DNA from: Patescibacteria group bacterium
Lineage (GTDB): Bacteria; Patescibacteriota; Patescibacteriia; UBA2591; UBA6264
Length of the DNA stretch: 32,000 nt
Direction: 5' to 3'
NCBI GenBank assembly: GCA_028713575.1
Contig: JAQTOB010000004.1
Location: 38,393-70,392 of the forward strand
Positions 4,085 through 28,343 of the stretch are shown piece after piece. Position 1 is the first letter of the stretch; the number at the start of each line of letters is the position of its first letter. Made by a program: the position numbers and the translations under genes. The notes under the pieces are model-generated. The model was not told the DNA's origin. It made no database searches and saw only the letters and a list, made by a program, of their open reading frames with translations.

Positions 4085-4092
4085 AGAGATAA

Positions 4093-4800
4093 TTAGATAA
4101 TTGGGGTCGGAGATAATTGGGGTCTGACCCCATGAGCATCCCTTCTGAGATAATTGGGGTCTGACCCCATGAGTATCCCTTCTAAAACATACATGATAAT
4201 TGGGGTCTGATAATTGGGGTCTGACCCCATGAGCATCCCTTCTAAAACATACATCAATAAAGGATTATAGAACGAAAATTTCAATTTGGCGCGATTTTGA
4301 TTGATTTCCAATAATTTTTTATCAAAACAACGATTTTTGACACTAATTTTGGGGTCTACACTAATTTTGGGGTCTGACCCCATGAGCATCCCCTCTAAAA
4401 CATACATCAATAAAGGATTATAGAACGAAAATTTCAATTTGGTGTGATTTTGATTGATTTCCAATCACTAATTTTGGGGTCTGACCCCATGAGCATCCCT
4501 TCTAAAACATACATCAATAAAGGATTATAGAACGAAAATTTCAATTTGGTGTGATTTTGATTGATTTCCAATAATTTTTTATTAAAACAACGATTTTAAT
4601 TGAAAATTGATAATTATTTAATTTACATTTAATCACTAATTTTGGGGTCTGACCCCATGAGTATCCCTTCTAAAACATACATCAATAAAGGATTATAGAA
4701 CGAAAATTTCAATTTGGTGCGATTTTGATTGATTTCCAATAATTTTTTAACAAAACAACGATTTTAATTGAAAATTGATAATTATTTAATTTACATTTTG
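4093..4800. repeat. Tandem or nested intergenic repeat array built around the palindrome GGGGTC-T-GACCCC
   Basis: Full palindrome copies lie at 4119-4131, 4156-4168, 4216-4228, 4369-4381, 4476-4488 and 4644-4656, with truncated copies at 4101-4110, 4202-4210 and 4351-4357. Long units of about 105-165 bp (cactaattttggggtctgaccccatgagcatcccttctaaaacatacatcaataaaggattatagaacgaaaatttcaatttggtgtgattttgattgatttccaat...) start near 4211, 4358, 4466 and 4634. The last unit runs directly into the pilC start. Confidence 0.9.
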
Positions 4801-4838: not shown

Positions 4839-6050
4839 ATGTTATTTGAATATCAAGCGAAAAATTTAAAAGGAGAAACCATCACCGGAACAATTGAATC
4901 CATTAATCAGAACGCCGCCCTTGAGATGTTGGCGCGCCGGCAAATGATTATTATCTCCCTGAAAGAAACAAGCGCTTTGCCCATTTGGCGCCGGCCGATT
5001 AATCTGTCTTTTTTAGAAAGAGTAACCGGCAAAGATATGGTTTTTCTTTCCCGCCAATTATCCGTAATGGTTATGGCGGGCTTGCCTTTGGTTGAATCTT
5101 TGGAAATTTTGGCGCGCCAAACAAGCAAACCGGCCTTAAAAAAGATTGTGGAAAGCGTTGCGGAAAATGTTCGTGGCGGTTCAAGATTTTCCAGCGCTTT
5201 AGCAAAGTATCCCAAAGTCTTCAACAATTTTTATATTAATATGGTGCGCGCCGGAGAAACCGCGGGCAAACTTGACGAAGTCTTAGATTATTTGGCCAAT
5301 GAACAGGAAAAAAATTATGATTTAATGAGTAAAATTAGGGGGGCTATGATTTATCCGATTTTTGTTATTTCTGCGGTTATTGGCGTGATGATTTTGATGA
5401 TGGTTTTTGTTGTCCCTCAATTAACTGACATTTTAAAGGAATCGGGCGTATCATTGCCCTTGCCAACCAAAATTCTTATTGCCACTAGCGATTTTTTAGA
5501 AAATTATACTTTATTAATCGTTTTGTTCCTTGTGGTTTTTGTTGTCGCTTTCAGGTTTTTTTTAAAAAGTAAAGCGGGTCAGATGATTTGGGACAAAACG
5601 CTTTTAAAAATGCCGATTTTTGGTGTTCTTTTTAAACAAGTTTATTTAGTTCGTTTTACTCGCAGTCTTTCTACTTTGATTATTGGCGGTATTCCTTTAA
5701 CCGCGGGATTAAAAATTGTTTCCGAAGTGGTAAGTAATTATGTTTTTAAAGAAATAATCCTTGACGCGATTATTGACGTGGAAGAGGGACGTTCGGTCAG
5801 CAATGCTTTTCTTAATTCTTCAGCCGTGCCTAAAATGCTTCCCCATTTAATGGCGATTGGAGAAGAAACCGGCAAGCTTGACGAAGTTTTGGGGAAAATT
5901 GCTGATTTTTATTCTCGGGAAGTGGAAAACATTTTAAGCAAATTAGTCACTTTGCTTGAACCGATTATTCTTATTTTTTTAGGAGTAGTTGTTGGCGGCA
6001 TGGTTGCTTCTATTATTTTGCCAATGTATAAACTTGCCACCGCCTTTTAA
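4839..6050 (+). CDS. pilC: Type IV pilus platform protein PilC (GspF family)
   Basis: 403 aa. It shows the internally duplicated T2SSF architecture (GETAGKLDEVLDYL and GEETGKLDEVLGKI in the two halves) and three hydrophobic TM segments. Confidence 0.92.
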   Translation: MLFEYQAKNLKGETITGTIESINQNAALEMLARRQMIIISLKETSALPIWRRPINLSFLERVTGKDMVFLSRQLSVMVMAGLPLVESLEILARQTSKPALKKIVESVAENVRGGSRFSSALAKYPKVFNNFYINMVRAGETAGKLDEVLDYLANEQEKNYDLMSKIRGAMIYPIFVISAVIGVMILMMVFVVPQLTDILKESGVSLPLPTKILIATSDFLENYTLLIVLFLVVFVVAFRFFLKSKAGQMIWDKTLLKMPIFGVLFKQVYLVRFTRSLSTLIIGGIPLTAGLKIVSEVVSNYVFKEIILDAIIDVEEGRSVSNAFLNSSAVPKMLPHLMAIGEETGKLDEVLGKIADFYSREVENILSKLVTLLEPIILIFLGVVVGGMVASIILPMYKLATAF

Positions 6051-6129
6051 TGCATTTTCCCTTAATGAAGTTTTTTTTGATGAGTTTTGATGAGGTGCGT
6101 TCCCATCAAGGGCGGGGAAAGTAAAATTT

Positions 6130-6204
6130 GGGCGCTTGGCTCAGTGGTAGAGCGTTTGCTTCACATGCAAAAGGCCACAGGTTCAAATCCTGTAGCGCCC
6201 ACCA
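6130..6204 (+). tRNA. tRNA-Val (anticodon CAC), CCA encoded
   Basis: Hand-folded cloverleaf: acceptor GGGCGCT/AGCGCCC, D arm GCTC-AGTGGTA-GAGC, anticodon arm TTTGC-TTCACAT-GCAAA, T arm ACAGG-TTCAAAT-CCTGT, discriminator A, then CCA. Confidence 0.9.
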
Positions 6205-6261
6205 GTATTAAAATATTTTAAAAATAGGTCGACACTTTAATAATTTTTTAACTTAAACATT

Positions 6262-6984
6262 ATGAAAAACAAAATTTTAGTCGTCGGAGTTTTTGTCTTT
6301 ATTTTTATTCTCGCCACCAATATGTATGCCATTGCTCAAAATGGCGATACCGGAATGGGTAATCAAATGCAACAGCGAATTCAGATTGACAATCAGAGCG
6401 AGAATGACCAAATCCAGACGCAAAACAGAGAACAAGTTCAATTAGAAATGAATGTTGAAATGGGCAATCAGGTGCAACAGCAAAATCAAGTGCAAAATCA
6501 AGGCGAAACAAGTCAACTTCAAAACAGCGAACAACAACAAACACAAACTCAAAAGAATTTATCTTTAAACGAACAGAGAAGAAGTCAAGTTGCCAATGCT
6601 GTGCAGGAAATGTTGCAGGTAGCGGAAAAAGATAGTGAAATGGGTCAGCAAATAAGAATAATTGCTCAAAATCAAAATCAAAATCAGGAAAAAATTGAAG
6701 ACAGTTTGCAAAAAGTCCAAAGCCGAAGCGGCTTTGTTAAATTATTTATCGGACAAAATTACGCAGAAATCAACAATATTAAAAAAATGTTGATGCAGAA
6801 TAAAGAACAGATTGAACAGTTAAACCAGATTAAAAATCAACTTGTTAATCAAGATGACCAGCAACAGTTAAATGAACAAGTTCAAGTTTTAGAGCAGACT
6901 AATTTGCAAGTTGGGAGTTCTTTGGAGGCGGCTCAAAAAGGATTCAGTTTATTCGGCTGGATGTTTAGAATGTTTGCCAAATAA
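6262..6984 (+). CDS. Secreted Q/N-rich low-complexity or coiled-coil protein (function unknown)
   Basis: 240 aa. It has an N-terminal signal-like segment (MKNKILVVGVFVFIFILATNMYAIAQ) followed by highly Gln/Asn/Glu-rich sequence (NQVQQQNQVQNQGETSQLQNSEQQQTQTQ...). Confidence 0.7.
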   Translation: MKNKILVVGVFVFIFILATNMYAIAQNGDTGMGNQMQQRIQIDNQSENDQIQTQNREQVQLEMNVEMGNQVQQQNQVQNQGETSQLQNSEQQQTQTQKNLSLNEQRRSQVANAVQEMLQVAEKDSEMGQQIRIIAQNQNQNQEKIEDSLQKVQSRSGFVKLFIGQNYAEINNIKKMLMQNKEQIEQLNQIKNQLVNQDDQQQLNEQVQVLEQTNLQVGSSLEAAQKGFSLFGWMFRMFAK

Positions 6985-14108: not shown

Positions 14109-17100
14109 ATGAAAATCAAAAACAAAATTTTTAGGAGGGTGAAACAAAAAATCACAAAAATTATTTTTGTTTTTTTAATGGTCGCGACGATGACGGGGAG
14201 TTTAACTAACATTGCTCAAGCTTATTTATTAGACGCGGTTGATTTGTTAGGACAAATGGACACTTTAGACGAACCGATTTATACGCGAAGCACGCAAAAC
14301 AATCCTTATAGTACCATAGTCAGCAATGCGGTTTTCAACGGCGCGGAAGATGTGAAAATTGATACAGTTCATCACCGTTTATTCGTCGCCGACCGCAGTA
14401 ACAATAGGGTTTTAGTTTATGATTTGGACGAAAATAATCAATTTGAACATTATGCCGCTGATTATGTTTTGGGTCAGCCGGATTTTACCACGGTCAGCGC
14501 CGGCACCACGCAGAGCAAATTCAACGCTTCAAGATATATCGCCTATGATTCCAATCATCAGCGTTTGTTTGTTTCCGAAGAAGAAAATAAACGGGTAACG
14601 GTCTTTGATTTATCCGAAGGAGTTACCACTGGTATGGACGCTTCTTATGTTCTTGGTCAGCCGGATTTCACCACCAGCGACACTACCACCACTTTATTTG
14701 GTTTTGATTATTGTTGGGGACTGGCTTATGACTTAGATAATGATTATTTGTATGTGGCTGACGGATCTTCCCATAATCGTATTTTAATTTTTGATGTTGC
14801 CCCCGAAGAAATGTATAACTATAAACCGGCCTTTGCTCATTTGGGCTCTTTGATCGGCACTGCTTTGGACGATTCTCATTTTGAGGGTCCCCATGGCTTG
14901 GTTTTGGACAAGACCAATGATATTTTATATGCGACCGACACCGACCATCATAGAATAATGATTTTTGATACAGAAGAAATTATCAATGGAGAAAGCGCGA
15001 TTAATGTCCTTGGTCAATTAAATTTTACTTCAGATAGCACCAGCACTAGCAGCGTGGGTATGAATTACCCTTATAATGTTGATTTTGATGGAGTTGATGA
15101 GCGTTTATTTGTTGCTGACGCTACCAATCATCGCGTAATGGTTTTTGACGTTTCTGGGGGAGTGACAGATGGCATGGAAGCCTCTTATGTTTTGGGTCAG
15201 ATTGATTTTGACGCCAACAGTTCTGGCGCGACCCAATCTAAATTTAATAAGCCTCGCGGCGTGGCCTATAATTCCGTTACCAAAGAATTATATGTCGGCG
15301 ATTCAGGCAATAATCGGATAATGGTTTTTGATTTATCCCAAGGTATTACTAACGGCATGAACGCTTCCAAACTTTTAGGACATACCACGCGCGGCGGCGT
15401 GCCGAATTGGACTTTTACCACTGCCAATCAAATGGGAGCACCTATTGACGACATCGGTTTGCACACGCCCGATAAAGTCCATTTTGATTCTGTCGGGCAC
15501 CGTTTGTTCCAATCAGACCAGAACAATAGCCGTATCTTGGTTTATAATTTGGATGAAAATAATAATTTAATTGACCATGTTGCGGATTATGTGATTGGCA
15601 GAGATGATTTTTTTACCGGCGGCTCGGACAATACCGGTGGCGGTCAAGCCGCTTTTAAATGGCAACATAATTCAATTCTTGATTCCGGGCGTCAGCGTTT
15701 ATTCGTTTCTGATTCTTATAATAACCGGATTATGGTTTTTGACATTTCCGAAGGCATCGCCAACGGCATGAATGCGGCTTATGTTCTTGGTCAACCGGAT
15801 TTTACTTCTTATGATGCGATTACTACCATTAGTGGCGTTAACGGGCCTCGCGGTTTTGCTTTTGATTCAAGCACTGACCGTTTATTTGTTGCCGACCGCA
15901 ATAATCATCGGGTTTTGGTTTATGATGTGGCGGAAATTGAAACCGGCGAAGACGCAATCAATGTTTTGGGCCAGTCCGACTTCACTAGCAACTCCGCAAC
16001 CACTAGTATCAGTGGCATGGACTATCCTTATGATTTAGCTTTGGACCAAACCAATCAACGTTTATTTGTTATTGACAAGAACAACAACCGAGTGGTTGTT
16101 TATGATGTGGCGGAAATTACTAACGGCGAAGACGCGGTGGCGGTTCTGGGTCAAGCTGATTTTAATTCTAAAATTGATACCGTTGAAGATGTTGAACAAA
16201 GGATTCAAACCCAAGATAGATTATTTAACACCAGGGGAGTGGCTTATGATTCGGTTAATAATTGGTTATTTGTCGTGGAATACGCCGGTCATCGGGTAAT
16301 GGTATTTGATGTCACGGAAATTGAAAACGGCGAGCCGGCAATCAATGTTTTAGGAGACGAAACTTTTAATACGACTCTTTTGGAAACAATTGATGCCAAT
16401 GAAAATACGAATCGGGTCGCGACTGCCAGCAATTTTTGGACGCCCGAGACAGCGGAAATAGACGGAACCAATAGAAAATTATATGTTAGCGACCAAAATC
16501 ATAACCGGACCATGATTTTCCAATTGCCCAAAATTACGACTGCTTCATTAAGTAATGGCACTGTAGGCGAAGTTTATAGTCAAACAATTTCCGGTACTGG
16601 CGGCGCTGAGCCCTATGTTTGTTCTTTGGTCTCAGGCACTTTGCCCACTGGTTTATCCTTAAACGCTAATTGCACTATTACCGGCGCGCCATCAGCGGCC
16701 GGAACAGCCAATAATCTTGTTATTCGTTTTTCTGACAGTTCAATTACTTCGCCGGAAACAGTCGGCTTATGGCACAACAAAACTTTTAGTTTAACTGTTG
16801 ACGAGTCTTTGGCTAACATTAAAATTTCAGCCAAAGCCGAATTAACCGCGGCCTTGGCGACTTATAATCAGGAGGATTACACCGAAGAAAACTGGACAGG
16901 TCTAAATACTTATAAAACCGATGGCGACACAGCTATTGATGATGCCGAAGATACAGCCGGAGTTACAACAGCTAAAAATACGGCTATCAATGGAATGGCC
17001 GGAGTGGAAACCATTGCTCAAACACTTAAAACAATTACTGCTTTTTCTGTTCCTAATCAAGTTGGCGCGTCAACGATTAATCAAACCGACAAGACAATCA

Positions 17101-18851
17101 AATTAGTGGTTCCGTTTGGCACAGATGTTACTGACCTTGTGGCGTCTTTTACTACTACTGGCGCCTTGGTTAAAGTTAGCGGAGCAACACAAACCAGCGG
17201 TCAAACCGCTAATGATTTCACAAATTCTTTAATTTATACTGTTTCCGCCGTCAATGAGACAACACAGAATTATACGGTTAGTGTCACGGTCTTGACTAAT
17301 ACGCAAACCGCCATAGATGATGAGGGCGCTGTTACCATTGATAACAGCACGCCTCAGGCGGTTATTATTAATCCAACTCAGGCAGTCACTGTTGATATTG
17401 CCGAAGACACGGAAGGCCCGAGCATTGATGTTAGTTCATTTATTAGTGCCGGAACAGGAACCATTCCTCAAATTACTATTACAGCCGCGAACGCGAATAA
17501 TGTTAATGTAGCCATTCCCGCCTCCACCACTGTGACCAGTGCTGATTCGGCTTGGGATGGAGTAATTGCCGCGCCAGTCGTGACCACGGTCACTTTGCCC
17601 AATACTTCAGGAGAAATGAAAACATTAAGCACAGCCATTGAAGTCGGATTCTCCGGTGCCAAATTATCTTTTGATAAGGCGGTTAGGCTATTATTGCCGA
17701 ACCAAGCGGGGAAAAGAGTAGGTTACATTAGAACAGGAATTGATTTTACGGAAATAACTTCGGTTTGTGACGCAGACAGCCAAGCGGTTGGCGACCTCTT
17801 GTCCGCTGACGGTGAATGTAAAAAAGATGTGGGCAATGATTTAGTTGTCTGGACAAAACATTTTACTTCCTTTGCCACTTTTAGCGCGGTTCCTTTGTCT
17901 AGTGGCGGAGGAGGCGGCAGCGCTCCTGTTTTAGTGGGCCCCTCTGATTTAAGTTTAAAAATAAATAATGATGCATTGGAAACTTTTTCAAGAAATGTTG
18001 TTTTAAATATTAATGCCGCTAATGCCACGGAAATGTTAGTCGGCGATACTGTTGATTTTGCCAATGTTGATTGGGAAGAGTATGCGAGTTTGAAAAATTG
18101 GACCTTAACTTCTGGCAATGGAGAAAAAATAATTTATATTAAATTTAGAGACAGCAGTCACAATGAATCTTCTGTAGTTTCCGACACGATTATATTAGAA
18201 GAAGAAATAGTTGCGGTTGGCGAGGGAAGCTTGGTTAAAACTGCTGATTCTACTGCTTTGTATTTGATTCTTAATGCCAAGCGTCATGTTTTTCCGCACT
18301 TGGCCGTTTATCATTCCTGGTCTTATCCAAATGATTTTTCCACTGTTAAAACAATTACTACTGTTGAATTAAATCAATATCCGGAAGGCGATGCCGTTCC
18401 TTTCCGCGACGGCTCAATGTTCAGGGGCACGACCCAATCCTTGTATGGTAAATCCGCTTCTGCTGTTTTTTATGTAGAAGACGGGAAATTAAGAGCAGTT
18501 AAATCAGGAGAAATTTATCAGACACTTTTTAATGACCCGAATTGGTCATTAGTCACTTGGGTTCCGGACGACTTGTTGGCCAAGTTTAATTATGAATTGT
18601 CTAATGATTTAGATTCGTCAGATATCCATCCCAATGGTTCTTTGGTTAAATACCCTGATGCTCCTGCGGTTTACCTGATTAAAAATGGCAAAAAGCAACC
18701 CTTTTCTTCTTGGGACATTTTCGTCGCTAACGGTTATAGTCAAAGGAAGATTTTTGTCATTTCGGCTGAAGAGACCTATGAAACAGCAGAAATAATCAGC
18801 AGTTTAGCCGAATCCCTGACTACGCCAGTCATTGCTGCGATGTATCAATAG
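14109..18851 (+). CDS. Giant secreted surface protein: 12 NHL-type blades, Ig-like domains and a C-terminal 'VY..G.KR' repeat module
   Basis: 1580 aa with a signal or anchor segment (ITKIIFVFLMVATMTGSLTNIAQA). There are 12 occurrences of the NHL-like strand motif [NH][NHKS]R[VIT][LMTV][VI][FY][DNQ], such as NNRVLVYD and NHRVMVFD, interleaved with YVLGQPDFTS-type motifs. Further elements are a He_PIG-like Ig domain (GTVGEVYSQTISGTGGAEPY...LPTGLSL), further beta-sandwich domains, a GGGGG linker and a C-terminal module shared with the gene at 22036. Confidence 0.9.
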   Translation: MKIKNKIFRRVKQKITKIIFVFLMVATMTGSLTNIAQAYLLDAVDLLGQMDTLDEPIYTRSTQNNPYSTIVSNAVFNGAEDVKIDTVHHRLFVADRSNNRVLVYDLDENNQFEHYAADYVLGQPDFTTVSAGTTQSKFNASRYIAYDSNHQRLFVSEEENKRVTVFDLSEGVTTGMDASYVLGQPDFTTSDTTTTLFGFDYCWGLAYDLDNDYLYVADGSSHNRILIFDVAPEEMYNYKPAFAHLGSLIGTALDDSHFEGPHGLVLDKTNDILYATDTDHHRIMIFDTEEIINGESAINVLGQLNFTSDSTSTSSVGMNYPYNVDFDGVDERLFVADATNHRVMVFDVSGGVTDGMEASYVLGQIDFDANSSGATQSKFNKPRGVAYNSVTKELYVGDSGNNRIMVFDLSQGITNGMNASKLLGHTTRGGVPNWTFTTANQMGAPIDDIGLHTPDKVHFDSVGHRLFQSDQNNSRILVYNLDENNNLIDHVADYVIGRDDFFTGGSDNTGGGQAAFKWQHNSILDSGRQRLFVSDSYNNRIMVFDISEGIANGMNAAYVLGQPDFTSYDAITTISGVNGPRGFAFDSSTDRLFVADRNNHRVLVYDVAEIETGEDAINVLGQSDFTSNSATTSISGMDYPYDLALDQTNQRLFVIDKNNNRVVVYDVAEITNGEDAVAVLGQADFNSKIDTVEDVEQRIQTQDRLFNTRGVAYDSVNNWLFVVEYAGHRVMVFDVTEIENGEPAINVLGDETFNTTLLETIDANENTNRVATASNFWTPETAEIDGTNRKLYVSDQNHNRTMIFQLPKITTASLSNGTVGEVYSQTISGTGGAEPYVCSLVSGTLPTGLSLNANCTITGAPSAAGTANNLVIRFSDSSITSPETVGLWHNKTFSLTVDESLANIKISAKAELTAALATYNQEDYTEENWTGLNTYKTDGDTAIDDAEDTAGVTTAKNTAINGMAGVETIAQTLKTITAFSVPNQVGASTINQTDKTIKLVVPFGTDVTDLVASFTTTGALVKVSGATQTSGQTANDFTNSLIYTVSAVNETTQNYTVSVTVLTNTQTAIDDEGAVTIDNSTPQAVIINPTQAVTVDIAEDTEGPSIDVSSFISAGTGTIPQITITAANANNVNVAIPASTTVTSADSAWDGVIAAPVVTTVTLPNTSGEMKTLSTAIEVGFSGAKLSFDKAVRLLLPNQAGKRVGYIRTGIDFTEITSVCDADSQAVGDLLSADGECKKDVGNDLVVWTKHFTSFATFSAVPLSSGGGGGSAPVLVGPSDLSLKINNDALETFSRNVVLNINAANATEMLVGDTVDFANVDWEEYASLKNWTLTSGNGEKIIYIKFRDSSHNESSVVSDTIILEEEIVAVGEGSLVKTADSTALYLILNAKRHVFPHLAVYHSWSYPNDFSTVKTITTVELNQYPEGDAVPFRDGSMFRGTTQSLYGKSASAVFYVEDGKLRAVKSGEIYQTLFNDPNWSLVTWVPDDLLAKFNYELSNDLDSSDIHPNGSLVKYPDAPAVYLIKNGKKQPFSSWDIFVANGYSQRKIFVISAEETYETAEIISSLAESLTTPVIAAMYQ

Positions 18852-18880
18852 AATTAAGCCGAAATTCGGTTTAAATAAAG

Positions 18881-19454
18881 AAAAGTCCTCCTATTTTTGA
18901 GGGGGTCTTTTCTTTGTTTTGAGACTCGGTTTCCCGTTGGAAACCGAGTCTCTTCACTTCTTGGTTGTTTTGAGACTCGGTTTCCCGTTGGAAACCGAGT
19001 CTCTTCACTTCTTGGCTTCCTGTTTAAAGTTCGGTTTCCCGCTTTGCTTCGTAGCGAGCTTTGCTCTGCTACTGGGGCTGGAAGCCGAACTTCTTTATTT
19101 TATAAAAAGCCACTTGGTCTTTAAAGTCCTCCTATTTTTGAGGGGGTCTTTTCTTTGTTTTGAGACTCGGTTTCCCGTTGGAAACCGAGTCTCTTCACTT
19201 CTTGGCTTTGATACTTTGGCGCAATCCCTGATTATGCCGGCTATGGCCGATTTAGCGCAATAAAGCTTCTATTATATATACACTTTGTTTTGAGACTCGG
19301 TTTCCCGTTGGAAACCGAGTCTCTTCACTTCTTGGCTTCCTGTTTAAAGTTCGGTTTCCCGCTTTGCTTCGTAGCGAGCTTTGCTCTGCTACTGGGGCTG
19401 GAAGCCGAACTTCTTTATTTTATAAAAAGCCACTTGGTCTTTAAAGCCTTTTTT
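18881..19454. repeat. Composite intergenic repeat island with a 32-nt perfect palindrome (x4) and a duplicated ~170-bp segment
   Basis: GAGACTCGGTTTCC-cgtt-GGAAACCGAGTCTC lies at 18921-18952, 18972-19003, 19162-19193 and 19292-19323. The segment at about 18963-19134 is repeated at about 19283-19454 (offset 320 bp). It contains a long hairpin, gttcggtttcc...ggaagccgaac, at 19027-19092 and 19347-19412, followed by a T-rich tract. The element aaagtcctcctatttttgagggggtcttttc occurs at 18882 and 19123. Confidence 0.9.
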
Positions 19455-19546
19455 ATAGGGAGGTTTGACCCCTTCCTCTTGTTATAAATATTATAAATGT
19501 TATAATAATTTTCTACTATTTTCGTAAAATTTTCGTATTTCGTAGC

Positions 19547-20077
19547 ATGTTCCACCTCAGAGAGAAAATCCTTTTTCATCAAATTAAAAACGGTGACGAA
19601 CAGGCCTTCACCGTCTTTTATAATACCTATAAAGACAGAATTTATCGTTTTATTTATTTTAAAGTTTCTGATCGTGAAAAAGTTTATGATTTGGTTTCCG
19701 AAGTTTTTATTAAAATATATGATTATATTAAAGAGGGGAATGACATTGATAATTTTCAAGCTTTTTTGTATAAAATCGCTCGTAATTTAGTAATAGATTT
19801 TTATCGCACTAAAAAAGAGGAAATTTCTTTAACTGATGCGCCGGAAACAGTTTCTCCTATCAATTTAGAAAAAGAAGTGGGAGATAAGGTTGCCGTGGAA
19901 AACGTCAAAAGATACCTTAATAAAATTAAACCAGAATACCGCGAAGCGGTTCATCTTCATTTTTTTGAAAATTTTTCTTTTTCCGAGATTGCGGATATTA
20001 TCAATCAATCCGAAGGCAATGTTAGGATTAGGGTTTATCGCGGCATTAAGCAATTAAAAGAGGTTTTAAGGGGTTGA
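19547..20077 (+). CDS. ECF-type (sigma-70 family, group 4) RNA polymerase sigma factor
   Basis: 176 aa. Region 2 is AFTVFYNTYKDRIYRFIYFKV...FQAFLYKIARNLVIDFYR. Region 4 HTH is YREAVHLHFFENFSFSEIADIINQSEGNVRIRVYRGIKQLKE. Confidence 0.9.
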   Translation: MFHLREKILFHQIKNGDEQAFTVFYNTYKDRIYRFIYFKVSDREKVYDLVSEVFIKIYDYIKEGNDIDNFQAFLYKIARNLVIDFYRTKKEEISLTDAPETVSPINLEKEVGDKVAVENVKRYLNKIKPEYREAVHLHFFENFSFSEIADIINQSEGNVRIRVYRGIKQLKEVLRG

Positions 20078-20595
20078 ACCCCTTCTATATGTAGGGGTTC
20101 AACCCCCTCCCCAATAATCGCCATCATAAACTTTTTACACAGGAACTTTTTACACATTTTTACACAGGACATTTTTACACAGGTTGAACCTGTGTAAATT
20201 TTCATTTGCATATTTCACAAAACAAATCCAAAATCCAAAACCCAAATTTTCATAATCACTTGGGAACCGAGTTTCTAAAAAGCAAGAAAGCAAGAGATGG
20301 ATTCTACGCTAGAAACTCGGTTTCCCGTTGGAAACCGAGTTTCCTTCTCCCCAATAATCGCCATCATAAACTTTTTACACAGGAACTTTTTACACATTTT
20401 TATACAGCACATTTTTACACAGCACATTTTTATACATTTTTACACAGGTTGAACCTGTGTAAATTTTCATTTGCATATTTCACAAAACAAATCCAAAATC
20501 CAAAACCCAAATTTTCATAATCACTTGGGAACCGAGTTCCTAAAAAGACATTTTTACACAGGTTGAACCTGTGTAAATTTTCATTTGGCATTTAG
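20068..20595. repeat. Composite intergenic repeat island with GGGGTT-G-AACCCC and TACACAGGTT-G-AACCTGTGTA palindromes and TTTTTACACA reiterations
   Basis: aaggggttgaacccctt (20068-20084) contains the sigma stop codon, and its inverse aggggttcaacccct lies at about 20093-20107. A block of about 175-200 bp (ctccccaataatcgccatcataaac...cacttgggaaccgagtt.ctaaaaag) occurs at about 20107-20282 and about 20346-20547, with a third partial copy at 20548-20595. A variant of the 18921-type palindrome lies at 20312-20343. Confidence 0.9.
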
Positions 20596-22035: not shown

Positions 22036-25000
22036 ATGAATAAACTTAAAAAATTGATTGCTTTGGGAACAACCGTTTCAATGCTTTTGAGTTTAGTAGT
22101 GGTGATGCCTGCTCGAGCCGTGACCATCGCCGATGGCGATTTGGTTATGACCACCAGCAGCTCTGCTGTTTACTATATTCAAGGAGCGTATAAACGCGTT
22201 TTTCCTCATTATAATGTCTATCTTTCTTGGGGCTATCCTTCTGATTTTTCTACCGTTAAAACGGTCAGCACTTCGGAATTAGCCTCTTATACCGACGCCA
22301 ATCCAATGCCGTTCCGCGACGGAGCGCTCTTCCGCGGCACTGCTGCCAGTTTAGGCGATAAAGATGCAACTGCTGTTTTTTATGTTGAAAACGCTCAGCT
22401 TCGCCCTGTTTTATCAGAGCAAGTTTATCAAGCGTTATTCAAAGATACAGACTGGGCAAAAGTTACTTGGGTTCCTGATGATTTATTGAGCAAATTCAAT
22501 TATGAAATGGGCTCAAATCTTTCTTCATCTTCAACCCATCCTGATGGCAGTTTGGTCAAGTATTCTAACTCAGACCAAATTTATGTCATTGAAAGCGGAA
22601 AAAAGAGAGCGATTTCTGCTACGGCTTTTGATGCCAACCGCTATAGTGTCGCCAATGTCATTACCATTGACTCAAGCGAAACTTATGCTAACGGTTCGGC
22701 TGTCACTGGCGTTGAATCCAGCTTATTAACACCAGGTTGGCTTGGAACCACTGTTGCTTCCGGTGCTTTGACCGCGAGTTTATATAACCCTCCGGCTGGC
22801 GCCACTATTCCGAACAAAGCTACTAATGTTTCTCTTTTAAAAGTTAAATTAACCGCGGGTAATACCGCTGCCACTATTAGTGGTTTGACTTTTAAGAGGA
22901 GTGATTTGGGCGCAACCACTGATTGGGACACCCTTTATGTTTATGAAGGGAATGATTGTATTACTCCCAATGGCCGTAGCTTAAGTTCGGACGACCATAC
23001 TGTTGAATTCGCGGTAAACATTAGCGTTCCTGCTAATGGTTATAAAGTTCTTGAATTGCGCGGTGATTTGAAAGCCGGTGGCGCGACCGCCAACAACCGC
23101 CATGCTTTCCAAATAACTGAGGTAGCAACTTCAGCCACGGTTAGCGGCTTGCCTTTAACTGGCAATGTGATGATTGTCGGCTCGGTCAATGTAACCACTG
23201 CTATTATCAGCGCCGGCACCCTTCCGATCAATCCTTCGGTCGGTGCTCAGGACGCCGAAATCGCCAACTTTAAGATTCAGGCCGGCGATAACGACATTAC
23301 TTTCAGCCAGATCGTCTTCACCTTTGCTGGCACTATGTCCAGAGGCGATATCACTAATCTTAATCTTTATTTGCTTGGTGAAACCGAATCTTTGGCGAGT
23401 GTTTCCGGTATCGCTTCCAACGACACCTTCACTTTGACTCTTGATTCTCCCTATGTCATTACTAAAGGACAGACCAAAAATTTTGTGTTAAGAGCTGATT
23501 TGACTGGTGAAGTCGGACGAACTTTGGAGATGTATATGGAAGAAACCTATCATTTGGCGGTTAGCGACAACGAATATAATTTCGGCGCCGCTGTCACCAA
23601 TAGTTTTGGCAACGCCGATGTGACTGCGTTAACTTTACAGGGTGGTGAAATCACCATGGCTGATAACGGTCCTTTGGCAGGAAATGTTGCGCAAAACCAA
23701 CAGGATGTGGTTTTAACCAAAATTGCTATTACTGCTGACCGGAGCATTGAAGTCCGCAAGTTATTTGTTACCTTGGCCAGTGATGTGGCGGGTGCTGCTA
23801 ACCCGACTGACGGAGTCAGCGACTTAAGAATTAAAGATGAAGATACTGGTCAAACTTTGATGACTCCGACTTCTGCAGTCGGCACCACCATCTCCGGTAA
23901 TTATCTGATGACTGGAACCTTTAATTTAACCGCCAATACTACCCGTAATTTAGTTATTACGGTTGACATTGGTGTTGATGCGGGTGATGCCCTTGACGGC
24001 AAATATGTTTCAGCCGACTTAAAAATGGTTGACCGCAGCGACGATTCAGTGGCGGACAACAGTAGCGGTGAAGAAGCGCAGATGCGTGATTCTTCCACTG
24101 GCGACTGGATTTTAACCGCTGATATTATTCCGATTAGCGTTTCTGGCGAACACCAGACTATCCAAACCCCGGCTTTGACCACGGCTGTGGCTTCAACTCC
24201 GGTTTCCGGCTTGACTTCCATTAAGGGTGCGTCAAAAGTTGATGGTATTGGCATTGTCTTTACCGCCGGTGATGCTTCTGCTGTTTCTTTACGGCAGTTC
24301 TCAGTCAGAGCTTATGTCAACAGCGCCGCTACTTTCTTGGCGACCAATGAAGACACTTCTCCGACTGGCGAAGTCACCACGGTCTACTTGTATGATGACT
24401 CCGGAACTTTATTGGCTTCTAAAACATTAAGTGCCACTTCCGCGAATCATGATTATGGCGCGGCTACTTTCAGTGGTCTTACTGTTACCATTCCGGCTGG
24501 TGAAAACAAGAAATTAACGGTTAAATTTGATGTCAATTCAACTTTAGAGGCGGCTAGATATGTTGCCTTTGGTATTGACGACGCGAGCATTACTGCTTAT
24601 GACAGCGAAGGTTCAACCGTGGATGTCACGGGCGACCTGAATTTCTACGCCAGCGACCTCAGCGTTCCGACTCACTACACTTATCTTGACACCGGTGGCG
24701 CTTTAACCATGGCGCAGGATCCGTCAACGCCTGATTCAGATATTGTTTTGGCGGGCGCGACTGACGTGATTATGTCCAAGATTAAATTCACCGCTACCAA
24801 AGAAGATTGGACGGTCAGTAAGTTGAGAGTTGAAATGGCTACTTCAGCCAATGAGAGCAGCGTCTCTAAAGTCAAGATTTCTTATCCGGGCGGTAGCGCC
24901 ACGGGCACTTTGTCCGGCGGTTTTGCTAAATTCACTGGCCTTAACTGGCTAATTGAAAAAGACACCGAAGAAATTTTGACCATCAGCGTTGATTTGGCGG

Positions 25001-25785
25001 ATATCAATCAGGATATCGCCACCACTGGTCGCGACTTGAAGGTCGGCCTTGATTGTTCCGATGCTGACGACGATTGTGAAGCCATCGGCACCTCTTCAAC
25101 CGTTTTGGGCGATGCTGACAGTGAGTTAAGCGATGTGGACGGCAACTCAATGTATTTGAGAAAGTCTCGTCCGACCGTTGCTGCTGCTTCTTTACCATCA
25201 AGTCAATTAATTAATGGAACCAGAGTCATTAACAAGTTCACTGTTACAGCTGATGCTGCGGGTGCCATCACCCTTAAGAAATTCAGTTGGGACGTTAATG
25301 TGAGCGACTACAATACTGACGGTTTATCTGTCACTAATTGGAGAGTTTATGACACTGGTAATTCAACCGCTTTGGCTGGTCATTGGTCAAACGCTACAAC
25401 CACCAGCACTTCTGGCGCGATTGCCGTTACCAACGGAGCCAAGGTTATGATTGTTGAACTTGATGACGAAATCGAAATTGCTGCCGGCACTAGCAAAACA
25501 TTTGAGTTAAAAGCAGATGTTTCTAGCGCTGCCATTTACGATTCAGTCAGCTCAAGCTTACTCAACGATGATAACGACACAGCGGTTAGAACCGGCGGTT
25601 TAGCCGACCATGATACCCAAGGTGTCCAACTTGAAGGCAGTGTTGCCGTTGATTTCCTCTGGTCTGATAAGGCCCGGGGTGCCAACCACACTGATTCATA
25701 CCAGACAACCTATGATGACTGGACCAATGGTTACTTGATTGACGTGTTGCCGACCGAAACTGTCTCATTGATCTATCCTAGCTAA
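22036..25785 (+). CDS. Giant secreted surface (S-layer or adhesin-like) protein: N-terminal 'VY..G.KR' repeat module plus reiterated beta-sandwich modules
   Basis: 1249 aa with an SD (agagga) and a signal peptide (ALGTTVSMLLSLVVVMPARA). Residues of about 30-230 are homologous to the C-terminus of the 14109 protein. After that come about 8 divergent modules of roughly 110-130 aa sharing a pattern such as ...V.L.K.K.TA....V....F.... The composition is rich in T/S/A/G/D. Confidence 0.9.
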   Translation: MNKLKKLIALGTTVSMLLSLVVVMPARAVTIADGDLVMTTSSSAVYYIQGAYKRVFPHYNVYLSWGYPSDFSTVKTVSTSELASYTDANPMPFRDGALFRGTAASLGDKDATAVFYVENAQLRPVLSEQVYQALFKDTDWAKVTWVPDDLLSKFNYEMGSNLSSSSTHPDGSLVKYSNSDQIYVIESGKKRAISATAFDANRYSVANVITIDSSETYANGSAVTGVESSLLTPGWLGTTVASGALTASLYNPPAGATIPNKATNVSLLKVKLTAGNTAATISGLTFKRSDLGATTDWDTLYVYEGNDCITPNGRSLSSDDHTVEFAVNISVPANGYKVLELRGDLKAGGATANNRHAFQITEVATSATVSGLPLTGNVMIVGSVNVTTAIISAGTLPINPSVGAQDAEIANFKIQAGDNDITFSQIVFTFAGTMSRGDITNLNLYLLGETESLASVSGIASNDTFTLTLDSPYVITKGQTKNFVLRADLTGEVGRTLEMYMEETYHLAVSDNEYNFGAAVTNSFGNADVTALTLQGGEITMADNGPLAGNVAQNQQDVVLTKIAITADRSIEVRKLFVTLASDVAGAANPTDGVSDLRIKDEDTGQTLMTPTSAVGTTISGNYLMTGTFNLTANTTRNLVITVDIGVDAGDALDGKYVSADLKMVDRSDDSVADNSSGEEAQMRDSSTGDWILTADIIPISVSGEHQTIQTPALTTAVASTPVSGLTSIKGASKVDGIGIVFTAGDASAVSLRQFSVRAYVNSAATFLATNEDTSPTGEVTTVYLYDDSGTLLASKTLSATSANHDYGAATFSGLTVTIPAGENKKLTVKFDVNSTLEAARYVAFGIDDASITAYDSEGSTVDVTGDLNFYASDLSVPTHYTYLDTGGALTMAQDPSTPDSDIVLAGATDVIMSKIKFTATKEDWTVSKLRVEMATSANESSVSKVKISYPGGSATGTLSGGFAKFTGLNWLIEKDTEEILTISVDLADINQDIATTGRDLKVGLDCSDADDDCEAIGTSSTVLGDADSELSDVDGNSMYLRKSRPTVAAASLPSSQLINGTRVINKFTVTADAAGAITLKKFSWDVNVSDYNTDGLSVTNWRVYDTGNSTALAGHWSNATTTSTSGAIAVTNGAKVMIVELDDEIEIAAGTSKTFELKADVSSAAIYDSVSSSLLNDDNDTAVRTGGLADHDTQGVQLEGSVAVDFLWSDKARGANHTDSYQTTYDDWTNGYLIDVLPTETVSLIYPS

Positions 25786-25788
25786 ATT

Positions 25789-26150
25789 CTTTGGAGACCA
25801 GGTCTCCAAAGATAGATATAACGTTTGACTGAAGCGCGTGTCCGCCTCTGGTGGACTAAAATCAGTCCATCTGGAATAATATAATAAAAATATTAGTTCC
25901 ATCGCCAAAATCCCCTTAACAGGGGATTTTGGCTTTTAAAAGGGCGCAATACCTGCCTATCGGCAGGTTTTGGAGACCAGGTCTCCAAAAAAAGTCTCCA
26001 AAAAAATCTTGCGAGGTTTTTTAGTTTTAGAGACCAGTTTTTTGGAGACCTGGTCTCCAAAAAACCCTGCGAGGCCTTTTAGGGATTGTTTTTTTTAAAT
26101 TAAAATATTATAATAATTGGAGACCTAATTTGGAGACCTGGTCTCCAAAT
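25789..26150. repeat. Cluster of REP-like palindromes TTGGAGACC-W-GGTCTCCAA with half-sites
   Basis: Full palindromes lie at 25789-25811, 25968-25990, 26038-26064 and 26128-26150. Half-sites lie at 25994-26006, 26025-26037 and 26117-26125. A co-repeated CTGCGAGG motif lies at 26009 and 26067. Confidence 0.9.
25904..25937 (+). terminator. Rho-independent terminator downstream of the 1249-aa gene
   Basis: A perfect 13-bp stem GCCAAAATCCCCT-taac-AGGGGATTTTGGC is followed by TTTT. Confidence 0.7.
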
Positions 26151-26174
26151 TACTCCAAATTAAAAAATAGCCTT

Positions 26175-26885
26175 ATGAGAAAAATTAAATTTGTTAATGA
26201 TGAGTATTATCATATTTATAACCGTGGAGTAGATAAACGGATTATTTTTGAGGATAAAGATGATTTAAAAAGATTTTTCCAAAGTATGAAAGAGTTTAAT
26301 GTTTTAGAGCCAATAGGTAGCATTTATGAAGCGGTTCGTTGTAAAACTTTTAGAGAAACTTTTGGAGACCAAGTCTCCAAAAGTTTTACAAATAATGAAA
26401 GATTGGTTGATTTTATTTGTTACAATTTACTTCCCAATCATTATCATTTCATTTTAAAACAGTCAGTTGAAGATGGAATTAAGAAATTTATGCATAGACT
26501 CGGATTGGGTTACGCAATGTTTTTCAATCAAAAGTATAAGCGCAACGGTTCATTGTTCCAAGGACCGTTTAAGGCGATTCATATTGATTCCGAAGCTTAT
26601 TTGCTTCACTTGAGCGCTTATATTAATTTGAATCATAGGGTTCATTCTAAATTTGAGGATTTTGGAGACCTTGAGGATTTTGGAGACCTGGTCTCCAAAA
26701 GATATAAATCAAGCTGGGAGGAATATTTGGGATTAAATCAAGAAAAATTTTGTCAAAAGGAAATTCTTTTAGACCAATTTGACACAATAAAAAGCTATAG
26801 AGAGTTTGCCGAAGAATCATTAAAAGGAATAAGAGAAAGAAAGGAAATAAAAAAGTTTCTTTTAGATGATCAAATAATTGGTTGA
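26175..26885 (+). CDS. Y1/HUH tyrosine transposase of the IS200-like / REP-associated (RAYT) type
   Basis: It carries YHIYNRGVDKRIIF..., an HUH motif in LPNHYHFILKQ, GSLFQGPFKAIHI, and a catalytic-Tyr helix LSAYINLNH. The ATG at 26175 is preferred over the TTG at 26130, which lies inside a palindrome. The CDS contains in-frame copies of the flanking palindrome. Confidence 0.8.
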   Translation: MRKIKFVNDEYYHIYNRGVDKRIIFEDKDDLKRFFQSMKEFNVLEPIGSIYEAVRCKTFRETFGDQVSKSFTNNERLVDFICYNLLPNHYHFILKQSVEDGIKKFMHRLGLGYAMFFNQKYKRNGSLFQGPFKAIHIDSEAYLLHLSAYINLNHRVHSKFEDFGDLEDFGDLVSKRYKSSWEEYLGLNQEKFCQKEILLDQFDTIKSYREFAEESLKGIRERKEIKKFLLDDQIIG

Positions 26886-26921
26886 TTGACAAACGGTTAA
26901 TTTTCTGATAAAATTTGGCAT

Positions 26922-28343
26922 ATGAAGATTAAAATTATTGCCATTTTTATTTTTGTAATTTTGCTGTTTCCGGGCAAGTTATTTGCTTCTGCCGCGCCGA
27001 TTGAAGAAAAATACTGGTGTGGCAATTTTGTTTCTTCTGGTTCTTGCGACCGTGAGCGAAGCAATGTTGACTGGGAAAATAAAACTATGGTTTTAAATAA
27101 AAGAGACGACAATACTTATTCATCTTCCAGTATTTGTTGGACCAATGAAATAAGGTTTGGAAAACATATTCACTCCATTACGAATTTAAGTGGCGTCTAT
27201 TCTTCGCCCGGCGGGACAAGCGTTAAAGCTTTTTTTCGTTTTGGCGATGCGGAAGAAGAATATCTTTTAAACTGGGGAGGAATTTATGAACCCAAAGAGG
27301 CGTTTAAAAGTTTTCGCCTGAAAATATTTCTTGCTTCAAATAATTCTGCCGTTTCTCCCAATGTTTCTCAGATTTGTTTTAAAGTAAGATTGCAAGACCG
27401 CTCAATTGAAGGAATTAAAAGTCGGGACAGAACGAGGGTTTCTAATTTGGAAAAGACTAAAAATGTTTTAAAAAAATATTATGAAGATTTTAATCAATAT
27501 CCTGTTGTTGATATTCAGCCAACCGAGAAACAGCGTCAATGGGATTTATTAAAAAATACTTTATCTTCTGCTTCTTTTAATCATTACGAAAATTATACTC
27601 GTGGTTTTATTGATCAGCCCGAAAATGTTAGTGAGGATTATCAATATGGTTATTTAACCAGTTCTCTTGGTCTGTATTATCTTCTTTGGACAAAATTGGA
27701 AGATATTAATTCCGAGCGTTTTGAAAATTCTTGGACCGGAGAAATTTTAAACGTGGATTGTTCTCCGCCGATTTATTGCATTTATTCTCGGGCCGATGCC
27801 GACCCAGAGGTCTTGTTAAAAGAATTTAATAATAAACAAAAAAAGGAAAATATTGAGGATGCGGAATTTATTAGAACGCCGGACGATTCCAAGGTTTGGC
27901 TAAAGACAAAAAATCGCCGCGTTTGGCTAAGAACCCCGGAGATTTTTAATCAAGCTAATGGGAACTGGGATAAAATAACAATAAAAAACACCCTGGCAGA
28001 TGTTCCTTTATTAAAATTCATTAAATTTAAAGACAAAGAAGAGATATATTTAGTTAGCGAGAAAGGGTTTAAAAGGCACATGTCTAACAGTCAAATCCTT
28101 AATTTTTATGGGCAAATTTCAGAAATTGTTGTTTTTGATAATGAAAAAATTATTAATCTTTTACCCGAAAACCGTTTAATCAAAGGCAAGGGACTGTCAG
28201 AAGTCTATTTTCTTGACCAAAAAATAAAAAGATGGATTACTTCTCCTGAGGTTTTCGCAAAAATGGGATTTGATTGGAATGAAGTAGTAGAAGTGGACCC
28301 CCGGGAATTAGATTATTATCCGGAAGCAACCCCGATGTTTTAG
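26922..28343 (+). CDS. Secreted protein with an internal pilin-like (GspG-fold-like) segment and C-terminal 'VY..G.KR'-type repeats
   Basis: 473 aa with a signal peptide (IIAIFIFVILLFPGKLFASA). SRDRTRVSNLEKTKNVLKKYYEDFNQYPV...DYQYGYLTSSLGLYYLLWTKLED resembles the conserved post-helix core of CPR pilin or pseudopilin proteins. The C-terminus has three approximately 50-aa repeats (KVWLKTKNRRVWL.., EIYLVSEKGFKRHM.., EVYFLDQKIKRWI..). Confidence 0.75.
   Translation: MKIKIIAIFIFVILLFPGKLFASAAPIEEKYWCGNFVSSGSCDRERSNVDWENKTMVLNKRDDNTYSSSSICWTNEIRFGKHIHSITNLSGVYSSPGGTSVKAFFRFGDAEEEYLLNWGGIYEPKEAFKSFRLKIFLASNNSAVSPNVSQICFKVRLQDRSIEGIKSRDRTRVSNLEKTKNVLKKYYEDFNQYPVVDIQPTEKQRQWDLLKNTLSSASFNHYENYTRGFIDQPENVSEDYQYGYLTSSLGLYYLLWTKLEDINSERFENSWTGEILNVDCSPPIYCIYSRADADPEVLLKEFNNKQKKENIEDAEFIRTPDDSKVWLKTKNRRVWLRTPEIFNQANGNWDKITIKNTLADVPLLKFIKFKDKEEIYLVSEKGFKRHMSNSQILNFYGQISEIVVFDNEKIINLLPENRLIKGKGLSEVYFLDQKIKRWITSPEVFAKMGFDWNEVVEVDPRELDYYPEATPMF

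Follow-up and report, generated by a model that had tools for sequence, protein, structure and literature searches.

A RAYT-like Y1/HUH gene of Patescibacteria with co-varying hairpin palindromes inside its own reading frame

By layout, fold, active site and lineage-specific palindromes, the closest known relatives of the locus described here are the RAYT/REP systems, or REPtrons, in which the gene of a REP-associated tyrosine transposase (RAYT, also TnpA-REP) is flanked by repetitive extragenic palindromic (REP) sequences; group 2 of these systems is exemplified by yafM of Escherichia coli, and group 3, with short perfect palindromes, includes those of Stenotrophomonas and Marinomonas. Palindromes within protein genes are known from the Rickettsia palindromic elements (RPEs), which are in-frame insertions of ~100-150 bp that add residues and for which, to our knowledge, no dedicated enzyme gene is known. 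In the Marinomonas REPtrons, the REPs are concentrated near the gene (PMC8266576). Here we analysed a stretch of 32,000 nucleotides (the window) from contig JAQTOB010000004.1 of a member of the Patescibacteria, or candidate phyla radiation (CPR), in which the gene of a RAYT-like Y1/HUH enzyme stands among copies of one hairpin palindrome. What is distinctive here are two in-frame hairpins at conserved positions, together with a rapid concerted change of all copies at a locus.

The open reading frame (ORF) of this gene runs from an ATG at 26175 to a stop at 26885 and encodes 236 amino acids beginning MRKIKF, and because all homologues begin MRK, the ATG at 26175 is supported as the start. An earlier note on this DNA, made from the letters alone, had reported a 236-aa ORF with HUH and catalytic-tyrosine motifs; both are present (NHYHFIL at aa 88-94, LSAYINLNH at aa 146-154), and H89, H91 and Y149 are invariant in the 33 aligned sequences. 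The hidden Markov model check that the note had proposed bore this out, with a match to Pfam PF01797 (Y1_Tnp) of 26.6 bits against a cutoff of 23 that joins aa 74-151 to profile positions 37-119 of 121. An AlphaFold (AF2) model built from 33 sequences, with a mean predicted local distance difference test (pLDDT) score of 63, has a confident HUH-type core in the order beta-alpha-beta-beta-alpha-beta-alpha, with strands at 11-17, 78-85, 89-96 and 129-136 and helices at 28-41, 101-120 and 140-160, the last of which contains Y149. When this model was compared with the PDB by Foldseek, the top match was 4ER8, the E. coli REP-associated transposase with a bound REP hairpin, followed by the IS608, ISDra2 and IS200 transposases (2VIC, 2XMA, 2F4F, 2A6M), all with probabilities of 0.97-1.0 and low TM-scores of 0.27-0.53; PDB searches by sequence only, with the protein or the family profile, gave nothing relevant, so that fold comparison alone produced matches. 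The protein is a Y1/HUH enzyme with intact catalytic residues, which shares its single catalytic tyrosine with the REPtron enzymes and its fold and catalytic motifs with IS200/IS605 TnpA. Unlike the REPtron proteins, it is ~70 aa longer, with a conserved C-terminal extension. The G+C content of the Y1 gene is 0.30 versus 0.37 for the window, and that of the sigma factor gene nearby is similar to it.

The gene and the full copies of the palindrome, TTGGAGACC-W-GGTCTCCAA, are arranged in the window as follows:

25788-25812, unstranded: palindrome copy 1, TCTTTGGAGACC-A-GGTCTCCAAAGA, directly 3' of the stop of the 1249-aa gene
25968-25990, unstranded: palindrome copy 2
26037-26065, unstranded: palindrome copy 3, with 14-nt arms
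26126-26152, unstranded: palindrome copy 4, at the conserved upstream position, starting 49 nt 5' of the ATG, with a counterpart in 12/12 orthologue loci
26175-26885, forward strand: Y1/HUH (RAYT-like) gene, 236 aa
26356-26386, forward strand: in-ORF palindrome site 1, with 14-nt arms and loop CAA, its core encoding FGDQVSK (aa 63-69)
26439-26447, forward strand: HUH codons (H89-Y90-H91)
26619-26621, forward strand: codon of the catalytic Tyr149
26678-26700, forward strand: in-ORF palindrome site 2, with 11-nt arms, its core encoding FGDLVSK (aa 169-175)

The four perfect copies and the half-copies that had been noticed 5' of the gene were confirmed, with start positions at 25791, 25970, 26042 and 26130, in the gap (25786-26174) between the 1249-aa gene (stop 25785) and the Y1 ORF. 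The first had been placed 4 nt after that stop: its core begins 5 nt after, and its extended stem 3-4 nt after. The last had been thought to overlap the transposase ORF; its extended stem ends 22 nt before the ATG, and only a TTG-start ORF (26130) is overlapped. What the earlier note had overlooked are the two copies inside the ORF, both of them in frame (site 1 with one central mismatch), conserved in position and co-varying; of all features of the locus, these are the most unusual. With at most one mismatch, the pattern TTGGAGACCWGGTCTCCAA occurs 6 times in the window versus 0.00 expected from shuffles, and the half-site TTGGAGAC occurs 15 times versus 0.64 expected, all 15 within 25791-26698 and none in the remaining 31 kb; the 6 full copies are thus crowded into 0.9 kb at the Y1 gene, with 0 elsewhere in the window (31 kb). 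Folded as single-stranded DNA, all six form stems of 10-14 bp with a 3-nt loop, with energies of -8.7 to -13.5 kcal/mol and z-scores of -4.1 to -7.4. An Rfam scan returned two tRNAs, no other family and nothing at the palindrome locus. The peptides encoded by both in-ORF copies fall in the regions where the pLDDT is below 50 (aa 49-73 and 151-192), and these two segments are probably disordered, as far as the model can be followed.

Comparison of the DNA of 12 orthologue loci from different genomes, 10 of them with long flanks, placed the palindromes at four positions, and every locus has a perfect one of its own upstream and at site 1:

Upstream palindrome: start 35-91 nt 5' of the ATG, in 12/12 loci
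Site-1 palindrome: ORF +169 to +198, in 12/12 loci
Site-2 palindrome: ORF +455 to +503, in 8/12 loci
Downstream palindrome: end 26-36 nt 3' of the stop, or overlapping the stop, in 7/12 loci

Across these 12 loci the palindromes match within one locus and differ between genomes, as in L004 (ACTTGGGAGTC-G-GACTCCCAAGT), L013 (TTTGGACAC-NNN-GTGTCCAAA), L014 (TTGGAAGCT-T-AGCTTCCAA) and L015 (ACTTGGAAAC-NNN-GTTTCCAAGT). About 21 nt are common to the sites and the perfect hairpin palindrome measures ~21-31 nt overall, with a near-universal basal stem (TTTGG/CTTGG ... CCAAA/CCAAG) and ~4 apical pairs plus a loop that vary by genome, the apical stem being GGGAAC in L016 and GGACAC in L013, for example. 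Since each orthologue locus has a lineage-specific palindrome of its own, the palindrome is cognate to the Y1 gene. The bracketing of the gene by a cognate hairpin palindrome, often in inverted orientation, is shared with REPtrons, and upstream and downstream copies are indeed inverted in several orthologues (loops TCG/CGA in L013 and T/A in L035). The copies in the reading frame at two conserved positions set the CPR system apart from them: no description of in-ORF hairpins of RAYT, REP or IS200 genes was found in the searchable literature with terms for CPR taxa or coding sequences, the words 'inside', 'intragenic' and 'coding region' have 0 occurrences in the foundational RAYT paper (Nunvar 2010), and 'inside', 'intragenic' and 'open reading frame' have 0 occurrences in the 2021 REPtron study (PMC8266576). 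As with the RPEs, palindromic repeats are tolerated here within ORFs, where translation turns them into additional or variable stretches of peptide; unlike an RPE, the element is ~21 nt long, keeps constant positions and brings no length change, and it resides mainly in the gene of an enzyme that processes hairpins. At the counterpart of site 1, a distant Y1 paralogue (36% identical, with a YIHRNP-type tyrosine motif) at 5180-5857 on the reverse strand of L017, 4 kb from the orthologue there, contains an AT-rich perfect palindrome of its own, TGTTAAACAT-TAG-ATGTTTAACA, so that the in-ORF hairpin may predate this subfamily.

Aligned proteins show the two in-ORF sites, which the DNA of the 12 loci confirms as perfect palindromes, as 7-residue stretches that are hypervariable in an otherwise conserved core, and within one protein both tend to have the same peptide, for example FGGSASK, FGNSVPK, FRSSAPK, LRSSASQ, LGSRTPK or FSGSATE. 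The site-1 and site-2 heptapeptides agree in at least 6 of 7 residues in 57 of 108 close homologues versus 5.6% of random protein pairs, and agreement between the sites was also seen in 18 of 133 representatives clustered at 50% identity versus 0 of 133 shuffled sequences; mismatches between the two sites of one protein fall mostly in the central codon, which corresponds to the hairpin loop. Turnover, measured in 121 aligned proteins as the sharing of the site-1 stem peptide by core identity, drops from 9 of 10 pairs at 90% core identity or more to 8 of 39 pairs at 80-89%, 61 of 817 at 70-79% and 172 of 4,141 (~4%) at 60-69%; the palindromes turn over faster than the protein. The change is concerted: at a core identity of 86%, FRSSAPK stands at both sites of P0022 and LRSSASQ at both sites of P0027. 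An intermediate state of palindrome replacement is shown by the pair L003 and L001, which are syntenic: L003 has a GGAGG type at three positions (upstream, site 1 and site 2), and in L001 a new type, ACTTAGGAGC, has taken the upstream and site-1 positions, while site 2 keeps an imperfect remnant of the GGAGG type (two mismatches). The fact that the copies in one locus change sequence together across relatives suggests that the enzyme and its DNA hairpins co-evolve.

The reading that we favour, at a probability of roughly 55%, is that the locus is a chromosomal, vertically inherited RAYT-like Y1/HUH single-stranded DNA enzyme of Patescibacteria together with a cognate hairpin in its own gene. 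It starts from what was seen directly at these loci, namely their anatomy, copies that are conserved in position, co-vary within a locus and turn over fast, a protein whose catalytic residues are intact, and vertical inheritance; from there we infer an action of the enzyme on these hairpins and the way in which the copies become homogeneous. The hairpin occupies the promoter region, two places in the ORF and, in most relatives, a place just 3' of the stop, where the enzyme would bind and probably cleave and rejoin hairpins in single-stranded DNA, like IS200/IS605 TnpA and TnpA-REP. The copies would stay perfect and homogenised through enzyme activity or through template switching among clustered copies because, as we propose, one enzyme acts on all of them or each can template the others. 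A new apical variant would replace the old one at several sites and unrenewed copies would decay, occasional copies would arise elsewhere in the genome in very low number, and the upstream copy would probably also autoregulate the Y1 gene.

Several points weigh against this interpretation. The biochemical link between enzyme and hairpin is a putative one, and plain short-patch gene conversion or template switching among nearby palindromes could account for the homogenisation with no role for the enzyme. The AF2 model, with its mean pLDDT of 63, is of only moderate quality, and the NCBIfam RAYT equivalog model NF047646 scores 20.7 bits, far from its cutoff of 80. No GTAG-like guide motif was found at the window copies or the orthologue palindromes, and the window locus has no copy 3' of the Y1 gene. 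The low copy number was read from the window, the orthologue flanks and contigs of metagenome-assembled genomes (MAGs), none of them a complete genome. Finally, the other palindrome families of the window (4107-4668, 18921-20343 and 20168-20587) have no Y1 gene nearby.

The position of the upstream copy bears on a purely regulatory role. By eye, in the 12 aligned upstream regions, a TATAAT-like box lies 5-12 nt from the ATG in most loci, directly 3' of the upstream copy, which therefore overlaps the -35 region, and copy 4 of the window probably overlaps the Y1 promoter; with the palindrome next to a promoter box near the ATG, autoregulation is plausible, as in IS200, where a hairpin near the promoter or start may regulate expression. 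A scan of 25600-27100 for consensus sigma-70 promoters and terminators gave 7 promoter-like sites versus 4.5 expected and 1 terminator-like site versus 1.1 expected. The palindromes could thus be cis-regulatory or structural elements (operators, terminators, mRNA hairpins) with no catalytic tie, kept alike by passive conversion or template switching: to the overlap with the -35 region can be added the terminator position of the downstream copy and the operator-like look of conserved TTTGG...CCAAA half-sites around a variable centre, and the correction of quasi-palindromes via template switching is an established mutational process. We nevertheless consider this unlikely, as an operator needs no perfectly self-complementary variable centre, and as it would explain neither why two copies recur in frame at the same places in more than 100 homologues nor why they are present in the gene of the one enzyme family known to recognise DNA hairpins.

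Copies away from the gene bear on how closely the locus can be equated with a canonical REPtron, that is, a domesticated RAYT that disperses high-copy extragenic REPs or REPINs and whose flanking REPs would form the local cluster. The earlier note had read the locus as REPtron-like, which holds for the Y1/HUH enzyme, for its best fold match, the E. coli RAYT structure 4ER8, and for a gene embedded in its cognate palindromes; the gene is also flanked by inverted copies in several orthologues (L013, L035), and the concentration of palindromes near the gene is that of Marinomonas (PMC8266576). The palindrome does occur away from Y1 genes, since 20 of the 22 metagenome stretches with a palindrome of the L001 type are without a Y1 gene, which is present in the other 2; those 20 stretches hold single copies, intergenic or within long ORFs in two different frames. 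The exact window palindrome was found in 8 stretches among 185,579 GTDB species genomes. A Saccharibacteria MAG has the identical palindrome upstream of and inside its own Y1 orthologue (L008) and at three intergenic sites, 5 exact copies in total, and a Paceibacterota MAG has three copies, all within ORFs. Saccharibacteria that can be cultivated also have L008-type orthologues.

The likeness to REPtrons ends with the copy number, the head of the palindrome and the family model. Outside the locus, 31 kb of the window contain 0 copies and ~175 kb of flanks of the 10 long-flank loci contain 2 extra cognate ones, and the Saccharibacteria MAG, whose three match-bearing contigs total ~470 kb, has only the 3 non-locus copies. 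High extragenic copy number genome-wide was thus seen neither in the window nor in the orthologue flanks nor in this MAG, and the very low number in the genomes examined argues that this is no classical high-copy REP. The over-representation beyond the locus that the earlier note had envisaged did not appear, the palindrome being confined to the locus within the 32-kb window, an outcome that the note itself had listed as contrary to its proposal; nor was there a Y1 gene near the other palindrome families in the window, for which RAYT paralogues of their own had been suggested. The GTAG/GTGG 5' foot, or head, of REPs is absent: the six window copies are preceded by attc, aggt, cagt, ctaa, aaac and ggat, and the orthologue palindromes begin ACTT, GTTT or TTT. 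Together with the low score for NF047646, and with the fact that REPs within the rayT reading frame are no part of the REPtron as described (wording of Nunvar 2010 and PMC8266576), this leaves a canonical REPtron with a low probability. Because copies are rare, GTAG is absent and the NCBIfam RAYT model is not reached, the locus is neither a canonical REPtron nor an IS200 element.

Gene order indicates that the Y1 gene is resident. The window is collinear with L016 over seven genes, encoding QueH, a 225-aa ORF, a PDZ protein, an extracytoplasmic function (ECF) sigma factor, a 325-aa protein, the 1249/1255-aa protein and Y1, with identities of 45-71% for the neighbours and 59% for Y1, and L001 and L003 share a second conserved neighbourhood. 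No neighbour gene common to all loci was found, and distant genomes place the orthologues in different neighbourhoods. Searches for relatives in phage records and viral contigs found none, those in plasmids gave remote Y1 proteins only, and a scan of viral contigs with the family alignment gave 113 pattern matches and 0 relatives. By these comparisons the Y1 gene is resident and vertically inherited, and a single resident, vertically inherited gene with a lineage-specific palindrome is again a trait of REPtrons.

These data also bear on whether the locus is an IS200-like element that still moves as a unit, with the upstream and downstream palindromes as left and right ends (LE/RE) and the internal copies as secondary. 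The unit between the upstream and downstream hairpins measures ~750-800 bp, which is the size and layout of IS200 (a unit of ~0.7-0.8 kb with a hairpin at each end), distant genomes carry the orthologues in different neighbourhoods, and L016 has, 9 kb from the full Y1 gene, a second and internally deleted copy (18790-19030) in which codons 1-60, the site-1 palindrome and a few codons of the 3' end are left. Such mobility is nonetheless very unlikely. Synteny is kept at 55-60% protein identity in two independent pairs (window/L016 and L001/L003), a deep divergence that sets the locus apart from IS200/IS605; the second copy in L016 is old, with 82-85% nucleotide identity, and nearly identical members in several copies were not observed; phage and viral collections gave no relatives, and plasmids no close ones; and the ends are identical perfect palindromes, not distinct imperfect LE/RE hairpins. 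The window has no tnpB, an accessory gene of the IS605/IS608 type that is optional in IS200, the neighbours of the Y1 gene being the 1249-aa surface-type protein and a 473-aa protein without a Pfam match. The earlier note had listed a canonical IS200/IS605 element with defined ends and a tnpB partner as contrary to its proposal; with no mobility found, no distinct ends and no tnpB, we do not regard the locus as such an element, and what remains shared is the fold and the hairpin-bounded layout.

The second copy in L016 lies directly 5' of the orthologue of the window's 473-aa gene, and ~8 kb with a HEAT-repeat gene, a 2006-aa gene and a 254-aa gene separate it from the full copy, which suggests a rearrangement with its junction at the palindrome. 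A second junction was found in P0014 (L042), a mosaic whose upstream DNA and codons 1-156 are ~99% identical to P0016 (L043) and whose codons 157-227 (the last 71 residues) have 100% protein identity to P0005 and only ~80% DNA identity to P0016, with a crossover within the 20 conserved codons ahead of the site-2 palindrome. That the site-2 difference between P0014 and P0016 is a short conversion patch was considered and rejected, as the DNA alignment shows a whole 3' module of other ancestry. These two cases hint that hairpins mark junctions; since the crossover of P0014 maps to conserved codons, ordinary homologous recombination may, as far as this alignment tells, have produced that mosaic.

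Copies in other genes raise the question of how the hairpin spreads. The 23-nt palindrome ACTTAGGAGC-NNN-GCTCCTAAGT lies within the housekeeping genes for Fmt (L033/L038), KsgA (L020/L022), TsaD (L021) and TruB (L023), at native positions. When Fmt and KsgA are aligned to solved structures, the palindrome adds no residues: the Fmt alignment is gap-free there, and KsgA is three residues shorter than the KsgA of B. subtilis. Relatives of this Fmt at 71-77% identity (L040 and L041 were compared) already hold most of the palindrome (TTAGGAGCTAAGCTCCT), including a rare CTC codon, so that the housekeeping copies are no simple insertions. We also rejected, as sole explanation of the in-ORF copies, mere insertion into permissive loops, because homologues free of the site-2 palindrome have the same length at that site and the Fmt and KsgA copies add no residues. 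A speculative extension, to which we give little credence, is that the Y1 enzyme and its hairpin form a self-contained rewriting system, in which a ~21-nt hairpin is excised or copied and pasted over a sequence of equal length and partial similarity, and in which the hairpins double as junctions for module exchange. Such overwriting would begin at the gene's own four fixed sites, with concerted switching of the apical stem as a result, and extend occasionally to housekeeping genes, giving the native, gap-free copies in Fmt, KsgA, TsaD and TruB; hairpins serving as junctions for the swapping of gene modules between strains would give the P0014 mosaic and the truncation of L016 at the site-1 hairpin. 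If true, this would be a natural, replacement-type rather than insertion-type propagation of hairpins, maintained across Patescibacteria, and overwriting instead of insertion would add a new way for prokaryotic repeats to propagate.

Databases contain 3,534 homologues of the protein at E <= 1e-3; those listed have ~98% query coverage, 51-68% identity by BLASTP (the closest match is 68% identical) and lengths of 208-252 aa, and the named ones are all Patescibacteria, labelled 'transposase' or 'REP element-mobilizing transposase RayT', some of them by IMG. A profile search of 1.84 billion representatives clustered at 50% identity gave 819 at E <= 1e-30 and 7,052 at E <= 1e-10. Such a system had been deemed unexpected in a CPR genome, a view that is not supported, since the homologues number more than 3,500, come almost exclusively from Patescibacteria and in part have the RayT label already: the family is common in CPR and no oddity, and its host phylum is Patescibacteria rather than the Proteobacteria of REPtrons. 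Very wide retention in strongly reduced CPR genomes argues for a host-level or self-preserving function. The persistence and co-evolution of REP-type hairpins and Y1 enzymes, and the cellular role of the enzymes, are open questions of RAYT/REPIN biology, for which the CPR family offers a compact natural experiment, with thousands of orthologues that have two to four cognate hairpin copies each at known positions; because the hairpin sequence can be partly read from the protein, its switching, decay and homogenisation are traceable on a phylogeny.

Tandem duplicates of arm and flank, in units of 12-18 nt, lie beside 5 of the 6 full copies in the window (25981-26006, 26024-26052, 26117-26140, 26344-26367 and 26653-26688). 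They and one unrelated hairpin complete the features of the locus:

25904-25933, forward strand: G+C-rich hairpin followed by a T run, the likely terminator of the 1249-aa gene, outside the palindrome family
25994-26006, unstranded: right arm of copy 2, tandem duplicate (GTCTCCAAAAAAA; repeat family D3)
26024-26037, unstranded: left arm, degenerate copy (GTTTTAGAGACCAG; repeat family D2), abutting copy 3
26117-26125, unstranded: left-arm half-copy (TTGGAGACC), abutting copy 4
26344-26355, forward strand: site-1 left flank and arm, 12-nt tandem duplicate (AAACTTTTAGAG / AAACTTTTGGAG; repeat family D7)
26653-26670, forward strand: unit 1 of an 18-nt perfect tandem duplication that encodes LEDFGD twice (repeat family D5)

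Unit 2 of the 18-nt duplication (26671-26688) extends into the left arm of site 2. The in-ORF arm duplications are in frame (KTFRETFGD, EDFGDLEDFGD), and a like signature appears in peptides of homologues, for example KLGNKLGNLVSK. BsaI (GGTCTC) and Dcm (CCWGG) sites within the window palindrome were considered as meaningful and dismissed, because the orthologue palindromes are without them. A near-consensus promoter (TTGACA, 17 nt, TAAAAT, with TG ahead of the second hexamer) spans 26886-26914, beginning right after the Y1 stop and 5' of the 473-aa gene, whose L016 orthologue is preceded by the same TTGACA box.

Further palindromes were observed elsewhere in the window. Between pilT-like and pilC-like genes (4080-4800) there are 6 copies of TTGGGGTC-T-GACCCCA within repeats of 107-168 nt, where left-arm-only duplicates adjoin full copies, with no Rfam match and no Y1 gene nearby. 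Five copies of a 32-nt perfect palindrome, GAGACTCGGTTTCC-CGTT-GGAAACCGAGTCTC, occupy 18880-19450 and 20300-20345, in larger duplicated blocks of 83 and 162 nt, and the inner part of this palindrome, GGAAAC-CGA-GT(C/T)TC, resembles the Y1-cognate palindrome of other loci such as L015. In 20100-20590, TTTACACAGGT-TGA-ACCTGTGTAAA occurs three times with runs of left-arm fragments ahead, and it is also found just 3' of the Y1 gene in the syntenic L016 (10766-10841); decayed copies of the Y1-cognate palindrome of L016 (ACTTGGGAAC-CGA-GTTCC) lie at 20258-20280 and 20525-20545 of the window. Lastly, two very large predicted secreted proteins (14109-18851 and 22036-25785) have a homologous module in common (...VFPHxxVYxSWGYPxDFSTVKT...), which forms aa 1354-1573 of a 1580-aa NHL-repeat protein and the N-terminus of the 1249-aa protein and has a 49%-identical match in L016 at the start of the 1255-aa orthologue (6098-6754).

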